NCBI GenBank assembly: GCA_000004695.1
Contig: CM000150.2
Span: 2,560,001 to 2,624,000 of the forward strand
DNA: 64,000 nucleotides
DNA from: Dictyostelium discoideum
Taxonomy: Eukaryota
Direction of reading: 5' to 3'
Shown: piece after piece, positions 35,518 to 46,541 of the stretch
How positions within the stretch are numbered: the first letter of the stretch is position 1
Layout of the letters: the number at the start of each line of letters is the position of its first letter
The notes under the pieces: model-generated
The model's database searches: none
Told to the model about the DNA's origin: nothing
The model's input: only the letters and a program-made list of their open reading frames with translations
Made by a program: the position numbers and the translations under genes

Positions 35518-38500
35518 ATGATATTGTTTTCATCATCATCATCATCAATATTTTATAAAATTAGAAATAACTTGCTTTATTTATTTAGTATTTTATATAT
35601 AGTAGTAATATGTTTATGGGGTGTTAGTAATGTTGCAGTTGTAGAATCAGCTGCAATTAATACGAATGGAGGTAGTACAAGTGATACTTACTGTCCATAT
35701 CAAGCACTTCCAGACACATTAAATGATTTAAATTTTTTAGGTTTCGATGGTGAATTCCACATACACGAAACTTTTTATTATAATTTCAAAAACTTTCAAA
35801 AATCAATATCTTTTACACTTTTACAAAAAAGTGCTTTCCGTATTTATACTGCACCACATGTTGTAGATATTGATCTTTGGTTATATAATAAATCTGATTC
35901 TTCAAAAGCTGTTGCTGTAAGTATACATTTAAAAAGAAATAAAATAAAATATAATAAAATAAATTTTATTACTAACTTTTTATTATTATTATTATTATTA
36001 TTATTTTTATTATTATTATTATTATTATTATTATTATTATTATTATTATTATTATTATTATTATTATTATTATTATTATTATTATTATTATTATTATTAT
36101 TATTATTTTATTTATAAAAAAAATAGCATACATCAGATATGGGTGGTGATGAAAATTTATATGCAGAATTAGAAGCTGGCGAATATTTTATTAAATTTTT
36201 ATTCTTTGGTCAAAATAAAGCAAGTCAATTAGATTGTACAACAATTACTTTAGAAATCGCCATTTCACCAACTGTAAATATTTACCTTTTTTTTTTTTTT
36301 TTTTTTTTTTTTTTTTTAAAAAAAAAAAAAAGAATATTGTATACAATATACTAATAAATTTATGTTTTTTTTTTTTTTTTTTTTTTTCATAATTTATTTA
36401 TTTTAGAGTTTGGTTCAATCTAGAATGCAAGATTTCGGTTGCCCAAGTAAACAAATTTTACCAACCATCAGTTGGACAACATTACAAAATACAGGTAAAT
36501 TAACCTATGATTCAGATGTTAATCAAGATGGTACAGTTTTAAATATTAATGATATTGGTTCAACTGATTTATATAAATTTGCTGCAAATATTCCATTCAC
36601 TTTACCACAATCAAATACAATTAATAAATATAGTGTTGATGTTTCAATGGGTTTTGATTTTTTAACTGGTGGTTCATTAAAGTAAGTTATAAATAAATTA
36701 ATAAATAAATAAATAAATAAAAATAAAATACTAAATATCAATTTATTTTTTTAAAATTTCAAGTGTTTTAATTCAAAGTGCAGATTTACCAGCACCAACA
36801 AATCTTTTATGTTTAAAAGATGGTAATTGTACAATTGGTGTACATTTAAGTAAGAGTCATTCAATTATAAAGACAGTATTATTACCAGGTGATTATATTA
36901 TTTGGATTTATGATCAAACTCAAGAGAAAGATATGGCAATTCAATTAAAATGTTTACCATTTTCAATGTTTATCGATATTCAACCAGCTCAACAAGTTGA
37001 GGACTTTTTAAATTGTCAATCCTATTTCTTACCAAGTTCATTCAATGAACCTGGCTTTTTAGATGATGGTGGTTTTATGTATTTCGATGAGGATGTTTAT
37101 TTAGATCTCTCTGTAAAGAGTGTAGCAATCACATTCAACCTCACACAACCAAGTTATTTCCGTACTTATATTCCAGATTTTCGTGTCGATATCGATATTT
37201 CATTGACAAAGATTGGCGTTGCACAACCAATTGCACGTTCATACAAATTTGGAGGTGAGGAGGAGATTAACGCTCAATTGAATCAAGGTAGTTACATTTT
37301 AACTTTATTCTACTTTGGTAAGAATGCAGATGTATTTTGTGACGAATATGCATTGGAAGTTGCAATCGTACCTCAAACCGATTATATTGGTAGCACTTGT
37401 ACAACCTCATCTGCACCAGATTTCTCAAGCATTAATCAAACACTTTTCAATAGTGCCTCAAAATCCTATAGTTTGAATGCAGTTGCTGGTCAAACAATTC
37501 CAAGATATCAATATGTTTTCGATAAAACCGATCTTAATCCACAAACTTTAGCCTCTGTAAATTTCACAATTCCAGACGATGGTGATGAAGATGGTATCTA
37601 TTTCTTTGAATCAATCATAGAGAGTAGTTTTGTATTGGGTGACGTTCGTTTAGTACTCACCGATTTAGCAATGACTCAAGATCAATCAAATATCGTTTAC
37701 GTTGGATCACATGATCGTAATCGTCATATCATTTCATTACGTATTTATCCAGGTGATTATCAAATTCAAATTCAAACTCCAAGAATCTCTCAAAATCAAC
37801 TCGATTATCTTCCATCCTGTTTAACCTATTCACTTAGTATGATCATTAAACCATCGAATGGTGATGAATTCGATCCATCATGTTTTGGTTTAGTTAGTAT
37901 TTTACCAGGTGATTTAAATACTCCAGCTTATTTAGGTACTTCAAATCGTTTACATGTCTCTGGTGAATATTTAATTCCAACTTTACCAATTTTCACTTCA
38001 ACTAGTACCTATCACAATTTCACCGTAGCATTGGATTCCATTCTTAGAGTTTACACTCAATACAATAAAGTCGATATTGATTTAAATCTTTATGAAAATG
38101 GTAAATTAGTTTCATGGAATACTCGTTTCTACACTGAAGAGGCTATGGTTTATCAATTAAAGAAAAATACACCATATCAATTACGTATTAAATATTTCCG
38201 TCTTAGTATTTCATCAATTCCAGCTTGTTCAACCTTTAATTTAGAAATGGTTATTTCACCACTTCAAGAGAATCCAAAGGATTCTTGTAAACAATTGAAT
38301 CAAGTACCATCCAATCTCATTCCAACACCAACTTTAACTCCATTCTTTTCAAGTGAATCCTATAATTTCAATCAAAATTCATCTGCAATGACATTTAAAT
38401 TACCATTTGTCGTTCCAGTGAAATCAGGTTCCGCTATCTTCCGTGCTGTCTTATCCTATGATTTCATTTGGAATAATTTAGCAATCGTTTTGAAATCTTC

Positions 38501-44500: not shown

Positions 44501-46541
44501 TAATTTACGTCTCTACAGTGATGATTTCATGGCTCCATCAACAGCCTCCACTCAAAATATCTCCTTTACAATCGGTCAACCAACATTTGTAAACATTTTC
44601 ACTATCGATGATCTCACTGCCTCAATCGATGCCGATATCTTTGTCAAGAATACCGCCAATGATCAAGATCTTCTCTATGATGTTACACTTCATAATACCG
44701 CTCAACATTCAATGTTATTCGTTGCCAATCCACCAAAATCTGGTCTCCAAAGTGATTTCTCAATTAGTTTAACATTCAAAGGTGTATCTAAAGATGCTTG
44801 TCCAGCTTTTGGTTTACAAGTGGTAATGAAACCTGTCTCTTATTTAACCAATCAACTCTATTGTACAAAGAATTTCCATCCAAAACTTCCAAATACAAAT
44901 CCAAAACCAAATCAATATGGTGCAGTCAATGAATATATCTCCTCAAGTATGCCAGGTGATTACATCAATAGTATGGCCACTGCTAACAATCAATTCGAAT
45001 ACAATATCGATTTCTCTTTGGATCGTATCTCTCGTATTGAAGCTTCCATTAGTTTCGATTCAATTGCCACCAACTTTTATTTGAAACTTTCAACTAGAAC
45101 CACCGATAAGAGTGGTAAAGTTGTTCGTAATTCAATTAGCACCGGTGATTGGAATGCTGAAAATTCATTTGGTGAAACCACAATGACCTCTTCCATCTCA
45201 AGCTCACGTTTAGCCATTGGTAACTATTCAATCACAATCGTTCAACCAAAATATCAACCAAACTCTTGGATTACCTCAAGTATCTATGGTGAATTATGTT
45301 TCCCATTCACTTATTCCCTCACAATTATGGATAGAAATCAAGTTTATGCTGGTTCAGTCACTCCTAGCAATGGTTTCAATCTTTTACCAAATCATGATCT
45401 CAATTTAGTCTTCCAAACTCATTCAACACTCTATAGTGACGCTCAAGCTACCATCTTTTGTAATTCTTCTCAATATATTAAAGATACCTTTTATTTGGCA
45501 AGTCAATCCTCTAGTGATACCATCGCACCATCCAATGTTATTTGTGGTGCTGATGATGGAACTAAATGGATTTTTGTATTCTCAAATGATTCACTCGTTG
45601 CCGACTCTTCCTATATCCTCAGTATTCGTGATGGAAAACTCTTTGATTCTACTGCTGTACCAGCAATACTTCCACCACAACATATCTACACCATGTTGGA
45701 CACCTCTTGTTCAAACAATGGTTATTTCAAAGATTCAGGTTGTATATGTGCTAAAGGTTACACTGGTGTAGATTGTAACAATTGTGCACTAGATTATCAT
45801 AATATTGACACTCAAGGCTCCCCAATTTGTGTTAAATCCGAATGTGAACCATACTATTGTGGTTGTGATCCAAATAATAACTCCACTTGTACTCAATTGG
45901 GTAAATGTGTAACTAACACAGATGGCAATGCAGTTTGTATTTGTTCTGGACCATACAGTGGTACAACTTGTAATAAGTGTGCTTTGGGCTATCATAACTA
46001 TCCATATTGCACAGTGTGGAAGGATTGTGGTGATTGTGGTAAAGGTAGTTGTGATCATGAAAATGGTCAATGTACTTGTCCAGATAACTATCAAGGTCCA
46101 TCATGTTCTCAATGCGCCGATGGCTACAGTGGTAGTGATTGTAAAAAGAATGGTTCCGGTGCTATCGTTGCCTTGGAAGTTATTGGTGCCTTAGTAGTTG
46201 CCTCCATTTTAATTGGTGCTGCCATTTGGTATATCAGAAATCGTTATAGATCAGGTGTCACTCGTTATAAGATGTTACCAAAATTCGATTTCGATAATGA
46301 TGGTGAACATACAACTCAATTCCCTGGTCTTTATGATGACGATGATGATGCTTTTGGTGGTGGTGATAATTCCGCAAATAAAAACGATAAATCCATCAAT
46401 AGATCTGGTGGTAAAACTCACGTATTCAGTTTCAGTGGTATGCCTTCATCTGCCATCGACTCTGATGATGATGATGACTATGAACAACAACAAAAAGTAA
46501 AAGCTGAAAATCATAAAACCAATCATTTATTCGATATGTAA
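35518..46541 (+). CDS. Giant type I transmembrane protein (about 3532 aa): signal peptide, 8 alternating A/B roughly 200-aa beta-type repeats, two laminin-type EGF clusters, TM, acidic tail; exons 35518-35916, 36127-36273, 36407-36681, 36764-46541
   Basis: Introns: GTAAGT..AAATAG (phase 0, contains a (TTA)n array), GTAAAT..TTTTAG (phase 0), GTAAGT..TTTCAAG (phase 2). All junctions are in frame with the 3202-aa track ORF, which is only exon 4. A-type repeats each carry CP..LP..LN..YLG.., ..IR[VI]Y..PH.[VL]D[IV]D[IL].LY.., ..G.Y.L.[IL].YF.. and C..F.LE[IM][AV]I.P (for example VDIDLNLYENG, LDVDLWLYNAT, IVDIDIRLKD). They alternate with B-type repeats (..[FY]..G[DY]..[IL].L.S..). EGF clusters lie at nt about 40800-41100 (CNCNGHGTCGDDGVTCVCKDPWAGIDCSKCKAGYHG..) and about 45700-46140. 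TM AIVALEVIGALVVASILIGAAIWYI, then a tail with a D-rich segment. Confidence 0.85.
35981..36107. repeat. (ATT)n microsatellite (about 40 units) inside intron 1 of the giant gene
   Basis: Seen directly. It translates as the poly-L run at the end of the 35518..36117 track ORF. Confidence 0.9.

Follow-up and report, generated by a model that had tools for sequence, protein, structure and literature searches.

A type I membrane protein of Dictyostelium discoideum with an ectodomain of ten didomains from the PPC / collagenase-CBD superfamily

Introduction

The stretch of DNA considered here is a 64,000-nucleotide window of the Dictyostelium discoideum genome (GenBank assembly GCA_000004695.1, contig CM000150.2, positions 2,560,001 to 2,624,000 of the forward strand; all positions below are those of the window). 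A plain list of its open reading frames (ORFs) contains one frame of 3,202 amino acids (aa) at 36933-46541 (+) and short frames upstream of it at 35518-36117 and 36410-36685. An earlier note made from the sequence alone had joined these into a single membrane protein of about 3,530 aa with a periodic ectodomain, and had not recognised the repeat as a named domain. The locus therefore raises the questions of what gene this is, what the repeats are, how they are arranged and what a protein of this construction might do. We find that the locus is the D. discoideum gene DDB_G0270488, which encodes a 3,532-aa type I membrane protein in four exons, and that the ectodomain comprises 20 beta-jelly-roll domains of the PPC (pre-peptidase C-terminal) / collagenase-CBD superfamily, arranged as ten didomains. 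We have high confidence in the overall architecture: five pairs of A and B units, an Ig-like domain and an EGF cluster, this series occurring twice and being followed by a transmembrane helix and a cytoplasmic tail.

Results

The ectodomain is an array of ten A+B pairs

The cysteines of the array form regular landmarks, with one Cys followed after about 110-145 aa by another and then, after about 12-25 aa, by the next. Delimiting units at these landmarks gave 20 of them, U01 to U20. When all units were compared with each other by BLAST, odd units matched odd units and even units matched even ones, and MAFFT alignments separated two distinct types, A and B. A scan with A and B hidden Markov models (HMMs) returned the order AB ten times over in D. 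discoideum. The same order came back for 14 of 21 homologues, some of them non-dictyostelids absent from the HMM. For a non-circular test, we built profiles from the orthologues of unit 11 (A) or unit 16 (B), excluding D. discoideum, and scored them against 100 shuffles. The B profile detected all ten B units (4.5-158 bits; shuffle maximum 3.2) and the A profile clearly detected nine A units (7-162 bits; shuffle maximum -0.4). The remaining one, U19, is marginal with the unit-11 profile (0.7 bits) and is joined to the A class via U09 (hhalign score 118). The array consists of ten A+B pairs with a period of about 265-300 aa.

The alternation of A and B units described in the earlier note is borne out by these ortholog-only profiles, which lie far above the shuffles, whereas its count of eight units of each type has to be raised to ten. 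The A motif that it called invariant is a consensus only: the strict pattern literally matches no unit, and U13 and U17 lack the DxD core. The first regular expressions that we wrote for this motif also returned zero matches, and the motif was taken as a consensus. Self-BLAST of the whole protein gave zero off-diagonal high-scoring segment pairs, the periodicity being shown by unit-versus-unit BLAST and HMMs. Tandem Repeats Finder and repeat searches detected no DNA-level repeats within the coding region, in keeping with the earlier view of an ancient internal duplication whose units have diverged at the DNA level.

The array is a duplicated ten-unit half

A longer period is superimposed on the A+B pairs. 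The best hhalign partners of the units stand in an i/i+10 register (1-11, 2-12, 4-14, 5-15, 6-16, 9-19, 20-10 and 13-3), two spacer segments, each about 125 aa long, show mutual homology (hhalign probability 98.8%, E=6e-17), and the sole notable residual DNA match, 82% over 34 nt, connects U02 with U12. Because of these three observations, we conclude that the protein arose by ancient duplication of a ten-unit half. U02 and U12 also have an extra Cys pair in common.

The spacers are two homologous, predicted Ig-like domains, one ahead of each EGF cluster; these, like the duplication of the half, had been overlooked. A model of the spacer domain is Ig-like (predicted local distance difference test, pLDDT, 84), and its Foldseek matches at E=1e-4 to 1e-3 are the S-layer protein SbsC, the LdtMt2 BIg domain, CopC and V-set Ig domains. 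PF13205 (Big_5) gave weak matches in 5 of 27 family segments (best E=9.6e-5), none of them in the D. discoideum copy itself. In the whole-protein Pfam scan the only matches besides noise (Y_Y_Y, Galactosyl_T) were of the EGF class. With 33.8 bits for PF00053 (gathering cut-off 21) and 31.6 bits for PF24973 (cut-off 27), the EGF modules are of the laminin type, and the clusters contain 16 Cys (two 8-Cys modules) and 24 Cys (three modules), respectively. Both clusters had been said to interrupt the array; the modules are as described, but only cluster 1 interrupts it, and cluster 2 follows it.

The units have the PPC / collagenase-CBD fold

When the didomains were scanned separately, PF04151 (PPC) was the commonest Pfam match (9 of 44, best E=9.4e-4), always under the gathering score. 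The whole-protein scan gave zero PF04151 matches, and precomputed PF04151 matches are present on three orthologues. The top eight matches of a sequence profile search of the PDB were clostridial collagenase CBDs for the B half and the C-terminal jelly roll of Tk-SP for the A half (E about 0.1-0.3), with DIDLWLY aligned to DLDLYLYD of Tk-SP. An AlphaFold2 model of U11+U12, made from a 44-row alignment (pLDDT 92.5; predicted template modelling score, pTM, 0.88), shows two beta-sandwiches linked by a short helix. Its best Foldseek match is the tandem CBD s3a-s3b of ColG (5iku; E=7e-11), which places the didomain in the PPC/CBD beta-jelly-roll fold, followed by the C-domain of Clostridium perfringens enterotoxin, HA70 D3 and SIDT1 ectodomains.

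When 1.84 billion representatives were scanned exhaustively with the didomain profile in HMMER, 1,652 proteins came up at E<=1e-3. The A+B profile aligns its A core with 25 stretches of the Magnetococcales protein NGZ28194.1 (E=1.1e-71). The best of these covers residues 1182-1247 (profile positions 36-101, in the A core), and the best Pfam stretch of PF04151 covers 1183-1245; Pfam places 24 PF04151 domains on those residues of NGZ28194.1, so that the profile is homologous to PPC. A Calothrix "pre-peptidase C-terminal domain-containing protein" is matched as well. Since their profile matches these Magnetococcales and Calothrix PPC proteins, the A units are, as judged from sequence, divergent PPC domains. 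The DxDL[YW]L[Y] and GxYxLxV motifs are full or near-full in U01, U05, U09 and U11, partial in U03, U07, U15 and U19, and missing from the A units U13 and U17; the B units retain the GxYxLxI part only. When compared with A units by hhalign, B units reach a probability of up to 96% (median 57%). They have the same fold in the model and weakly match collagenase CBDs.

The loose resemblance to PPC domains mentioned in the earlier note is thus substantiated by the modelled fold and the match to NGZ28194.1, and the repeat left unnamed there is a divergent member of a named superfamily. The HMMER search of units proposed in that note, run here with the didomain profile, is the one that matched PPC-bearing bacterial proteins.

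Outside the EGF clusters, 19 of the 20 units have one Cys at the first residue and one in the last strand; U17 has neither, in D. discoideum and in its homologues. Among 187 A units, 162 have both Cys, 19 have neither and 6 have one only, and the single-Cys mismatches are mostly artefacts of envelope boundaries. Because the two Cys are lost jointly, the pattern fits an intradomain staple from the N-terminus to the last strand, and would fit a bridge between domains less well.

The four-exon gene model

G+C content is about 22% in the window and 27-36% in its coding islands. Four exons separated by three GT..AG introns (Table 1) splice in frame into a coding sequence (CDS) of 10,599 nt with a lone terminal stop. 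The spliced protein and GenBank KAM9941394.1 (D. discoideum ACTFIT_007937) are identical in every residue. The sole difference from the AX4 model of DDB_G0270488 (XP_645904.1, UniProt Q55E77, 3,534 aa; public name "EGF-like domain-containing protein") is a pair of residues (NI) that AX4 has in addition at the exon 2/3 junction, where PTSL[VI]Q, the reading found here, also stands in eight further gene models, drawn from D. discoideum strains and sister species. At window positions 36268-36290, no canonical GT donor in the present sequence yields the PT-NI-SLVQ of AX4, and a small error in the AX4 model at the junction of exon 2 and intron 2 is probable. A (TTA)n microsatellite of 44.7 copies at 35980-36112 fills most of intron 1. 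Strains of D. discoideum differ in the length of the N-terminal Ser run and of the signal region, and their proteins measure 3,530 to 3,538 aa.

The ORF list could be taken to mean that the upstream exons belong to another transcript and that the true start is ATG 36933, the first ATG of the long ORF. This ATG, however, falls within unit B1, and A1 and B1 are whole only after splicing, when they match the ortholog-only profiles across the junctions. The alignment to orthologues is gap-free across all three junctions, including the mRNA- or transcriptome-derived sequences of Cavostelium, Soliformovum and Cochliopodium, which have the N-terminal hydrophobic signal in common with the D. discoideum protein. 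Nine independent gene models concur, and we give such an artefact almost no chance. The size and type I topology proposed earlier (a signal sequence and one transmembrane segment), the three 5' exons missed by the ORF list and their phase-consistent canonical junctions are all upheld; exons 1-3, however, encode the signal peptide, the whole of A1 and the first half of B1, rather than the signal peptide and the first half-repeat. The four-exon model is correct yet already public in GenBank and dictyBase, and is not new.

Membrane anchor and cytoplasmic tail

A hydropathy scan and the composition of the tail agree with the earlier reading of a single transmembrane helix and an acidic tail. By the same scan, nearly all full-length members of the family have an N-terminal hydrophobic segment and one C-terminal transmembrane segment; a few lack an N-terminal segment above the threshold, and the cytoplasmic tail measures 20-130 aa in every one of them. 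Within Dictyostelia, conservation of the tail is strong, and it reads R[FY]R[SA]GV[AT]RYKMLP.F, then KFPGLYD[DS] with acidic residues, HVFSF, an acidic Ser/Asp cluster and, at the C-terminus, [LF]FD[MLI]. Its YKML, of the YxxPhi type, is strictly conserved across Dictyostelia.

Distribution across protists

Full-length proteins of about 3,400-3,760 aa with ten didomain stretches occur in all sampled Dictyostelia. The same form is found in other Amoebozoa (Cavostelium, Soliformovum, Cochliopodium, Luapelamoeba, Endostelium, Arcella, Mastigamoeba and Balamuthia) and, beyond them, in the malawimonad Gefionella, the CRuMs flagellate Diphylleia and Rhodelphis. Heterotrich ciliates have a form of about 1,750-2,100 aa: the proteins of Stentor coeruleus (OMJ79551.1) and Blepharisma stoltei resemble that of D. 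discoideum in their A+B didomains, laminin-type EGF modules, single transmembrane segment and short tail, but differ in having five A+B pairs, equivalent to one half of the Dictyostelium protein. Four metagenomic relatives of 4,600-5,200 aa (P0058, P0074, P0080 and P0095) carry 13-14 A+B didomains instead of 10, so the number of units is not the same throughout the family. Among the HMMER matches, those with a name include no animal, fungal or plant protein; as most are nameless, absence from these groups is not established. Identity per unit between D. discoideum and non-dictyostelid orthologues is even along the array, at 22-37%, with its peak at U01 and U11, the first units of the two halves.

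Table 1. Features of DDB_G0270488 in the window and in the encoded protein
Feature	Window position	Strand	Residues and remarks
Exon 1	35518..35916	+	aa 1-133; start codon, hydrophobic signal sequence aa 19-37, first two thirds of A1
Intron 1	35917..36126	+	GTAAGT...TAG, 210 nt; (TTA)x44.7
Exon 2	36127..36273	+	aa 134-182; remainder of A1
Intron 2	36274..36406	+	GTAAAT...TAG, 133 nt
Exon 3	36407..36681	+	aa 183-274; first half of B1
Intron 3	36682..36763	+	GTAAGT...AAG, 82 nt
Exon 4	36764..46541	+	aa 274-3532 plus stop; ORF list begins at internal ATG 36933
Array half 1, five A+B didomains, U01-U10	35692..40403	+	aa 59-1487; includes introns 1-3
Half 1, A unit starts			aa 59, 358, 647, 925, 1200
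Half 1, B unit starts			aa 194, 486, 782, 1067, 1340
Ig-like (putative Big_5-type) domain 1	40425..40799	+	aa 1495-1619; hhalign to domain 2
EGF cluster 1, two 8-Cys laminin-type modules	40800..41084	+	aa 1620-1714; PF24973, PF00053
Array half 2, five A+B didomains, U11-U20	41115..45323	+	aa 1725-3127
Half 2, A unit starts			aa 1725, 2021, 2285, 2560, 2825
Half 2, B unit starts			aa 1863, 2144, 2418, 2691, 2974
Modelled didomain U11+U12	41115..41978	+	aa 1725-2012; two beta-jelly rolls, short helix between
Ig-like (putative Big_5-type) domain 2	45336..45707	+	aa 3132-3255; hhalign to domain 1
EGF cluster 2, three 8-Cys laminin-type modules	45708..46142	+	aa 3256-3400; PF00053
Transmembrane helix	46158..46232	+	aa 3406-3430; hydropathy scan
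Cytoplasmic tail	46233..46538	+	aa 3431-3532; basic juxtamembrane stretch, YKML, DDDDD, DSDDDDD, C-terminal LFDM
YKML, YxxPhi-type	46266..46277	+	aa 3442-3445; about 12 residues past the transmembrane helix

Other genes in the window

Directly upstream of DDB_G0270488 lies a gene for a GRAM and RabGAP-TBC protein at 31843-33999 (+). The 2,649-aa ORF at 52482-60431 (-) encodes a hybrid polyketide synthase whose type I modules have acyltransferase, dehydratase, methyltransferase, enoylreductase, ketoreductase and acyl carrier protein domains and are fused to a C-terminal type III chalcone/stilbene synthase, which is the known Dictyostelium 'Steely' architecture; the ORF just upstream of it, at 60589-61548 (-), may be a 5' exon of this gene with the ketosynthase part. 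A subtilase (Peptidase_S8) ORF is found at 13853-15961 (-), and a 975-aa ORF with a ComC 'supersandwich' domain at 18522-21449 (+). The ORF at 2424-3899 (+) has domains II-V of EF-G without the GTPase domain, which is probably in the upstream ORF at 1561-2286 (+); this would be another multi-exon gene that is split in the ORF list.

Discussion

Relation to known architectures

The closest known structures are the bacterial PPC domains (PF04151) and collagenase CBDs, such as ColG s3a-s3b and ColH s3, together with Tk-SP and KP-43. Most A units share with these the patterns D-x-D-[LI]-x-[LV]-[Y] and G-x-Y-x-[LI]-x-[IV]; as in ColG s3a-s3b the domains stand in tandem, and the homology to bacterial PPC arrays extends to the level of profiles. 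Unlike the bacterial proteins, the Dictyostelium protein is eukaryotic, anchored in the membrane and free of an attached protease, and its A and B subtypes have diverged and form a fixed didomain. Its domains also differ in having one Cys at the N-terminus and one in the last strand and, in the A units, an N-terminal 'C..LP..LN...YLG' extension; in contrast to bona fide PPC domains, those of D. discoideum score under the Pfam gathering threshold.

In its overall design the protein recalls CI-MPR (IGF2R), a type I protein with a long array of disulfide-stabilised beta repeats of about 130-150 aa, whose short tail combines YxxPhi close to the membrane with acidic clusters and, at the C-terminus, a hydrophobic/acidic motif. 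The type I topology, repeat array and tail motifs of the Dictyostelium protein make this an analogy of design only: it has the PPC jelly roll instead of MRH domains, with no sequence relationship. No mannose-6-phosphate receptor chain was among the 50-60 top fold matches listed, which comprised domains of PPC/CBD type and further beta-sandwiches (GOLD, CUB, C1q and SIDT1). The 8-Cys laminin-type EGF modules close to the membrane (PF00053, PF24973, PF23106) are shared with attractin/MEGF8 and with teneurin- and tenascin-like proteins, in contrast to which EGF modules account for less than 7% of the Dictyostelium protein. Pfam scans found no FN3, fibrinogen, CUB, kelch or YD domains, and the protein is not of the tenascin/teneurin type. 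For the Balamuthia orthologue we rejected the label 'Tenascin C', a name that reflects EGF matches only.

Possible functions

We tentatively propose, as a possibility somewhat short of probable, that the protein acts as a multivalent receptor at the cell surface, binding an extracellular polymer with its PPC-type modules and being internalised and recycled through signals in its tail. The adhesion or receptor architecture suggested in the earlier note likewise stays at the level of inference. In the proposed role, the protein would project from the cell surface as a multivalent rod, long and semi-rigid, with its PPC-type modules binding a polymeric ligand (glycan or protein) on prey, particles or the substratum; bacterial PPC and CBD modules bind insoluble substrates. 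YKML, the acidic clusters and the C-terminal [LF][LF]D[LM] would couple the protein to clathrin-adaptor sorting and thereby to endocytosis and recycling, and the combination of YxxPhi, acidic clusters and a C-terminal hydrophobic-acidic motif is typical of type I proteins that are endocytosed or cycle between the trans-Golgi network (TGN) and endosomes. In 90 tails of the family, YxxPhi lies within 30 residues of the transmembrane segment in 61%, where shuffled tails give 17% (maximum 29%); 15.6% have a hydrophobic-hydrophobic-acidic motif at the C-terminus, compared with 0.9%; and D+E make up 20% of residues. These motifs suggest a tail of the endocytic or recycling kind. Several considerations weigh against this proposal. 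YxxPhi motifs and acidic clusters are short, and since the tails come from related sequences, the shuffle test makes them look more independent than they are; the length of the rod, of the order of 100 nm by domain count, is an estimate only; and no unit stands out by its conservation as a ligand-binding tip, the even conservation fitting a structural role equally well. With regard to the modules themselves, PF04151 scores 15.5 bits on D. discoideum U11 (E=0.032), under the gathering score of 25.9, and the disulfide pairing is deduced from the presence and absence of Cys, essentially one loss event, and not from coordinates.

The even conservation over all units would also suit a passive structural coat or spacer, that is, a fixed-length glycocalyx element or molecular ruler with no specific ligand. 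Such a role would be in line with the constancy of 20 units and about 3,400-3,700 aa across eukaryotic supergroups, with the two-Cys, staple-like pattern in each domain and with the confidently fixed A-B orientation in the model; we nevertheless think it rather unlikely, given that sorting-type motifs are conserved in the tail, that forms with 5 and 13-14 pairs exist, so that length is not universally fixed, and that N-glycosylation sequons show no enrichment (32 were counted, with 41 +/- 6 expected). The tail could instead belong to an intracellular cargo-sorting receptor like CI-MPR or sortilin, with the luminal array binding hydrolases or other cargo in the Golgi and endosomes and the tail driving TGN-endosome cycling. 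The CI-MPR-like design, with its membrane-near YxxPhi, the CK2-like acidic clusters (DSDDDDD) and the C-terminal hydrophobic-acidic motif (LFDM, LLDL) speak for this, and to our knowledge no mannose-6-phosphate-type sorting receptor has been identified in Dictyostelium. The fold is the PPC jelly roll and not MRH, however, tails beyond Dictyostelia are short and variable, and laminin-type EGF and Ig-like modules are more usual in surface proteins, all of which makes a sorting receptor unlikely in our view.

A very unlikely role, to our mind, though one suggested by a genetic screen, is that of a component of the TgrB1-TgrC1 allorecognition pathway acting in cell-cell adhesion or signalling during development. 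In Li et al. 2016 (PMC5052037), DDB_G0270488 is 'g1' among the candidate genes of nitrosoguanidine (NTG) screens, 13 genes are described as having three or more mutations in 63 NTG suppressors of tgrB1-C1 mismatch, and three DDB_G genes, g8-g10, are named in the text for the aggregation screen. Because g8-g10 are assigned to that screen, g1 would by elimination belong to the mismatch suppressor set. The candidate is an unvalidated one, though, and with 3,690 G:C pairs in the CDS, the 1,084 exonic mutations given in PMC5052037 and about 5.5 M coding G:C pairs, a rough Poisson estimate puts lambda near 0.73 and the chance probability P(>=3) near 0.04 for this one gene, before multiple-testing correction. 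The family is also present in strictly unicellular amoebae and flagellates, which precludes a core role restricted to aggregative development, and the lead from the suppressor screen is weak. A search of the literature for Q55E77 and for PPC domains in Dictyostelium or amoebae returned nothing relevant; among the papers searched, the gene is named only in PMC5052037.

The family may be ancient, perhaps dating back to the last eukaryotic common ancestor, with the 20-PPC rod kept unit for unit in phagotrophic protists as a core feeding or endolysosomal receptor, and apparently lost or diverged past recognition in animals, fungi and plants. It would capture prey or particles and be internalised with the phagosome or macropinosome, or serve as an amoebal lysosomal cargo-sorting receptor. 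We regard this scenario as speculative and quite unlikely in its full form.

Significance

Both the gene and its model can be found in public databases, and the folds were described before; the family is uncharacterised. What public annotation appears to lack is the assignment of more than 85% of the protein to 20 PPC-type and 2 Ig-like domains, the duplication of the half, the conservation, one unit matching another, across supergroups and the shared tail signals. A dedicated family model could remedy this for the 20 PPC-type and 2 Ig-like domains that are missed at Pfam thresholds. PPC and Big_5 modules are considered typical of bacteria; a eukaryotic membrane protein is here made up largely of PPC and putative Big_5-type modules, and the number of domains is constant between lineages that split near the base of the eukaryotic tree. 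This constancy raises questions about constraints on length, about the capture of ligands by multivalent binding and about endocytic sorting in phagotrophs. If the proposed role is true, Dictyostelium would give genetic access, in a tractable organism, to a receptor family that is large, widely conserved among free-living protists and wholly uncharacterised.

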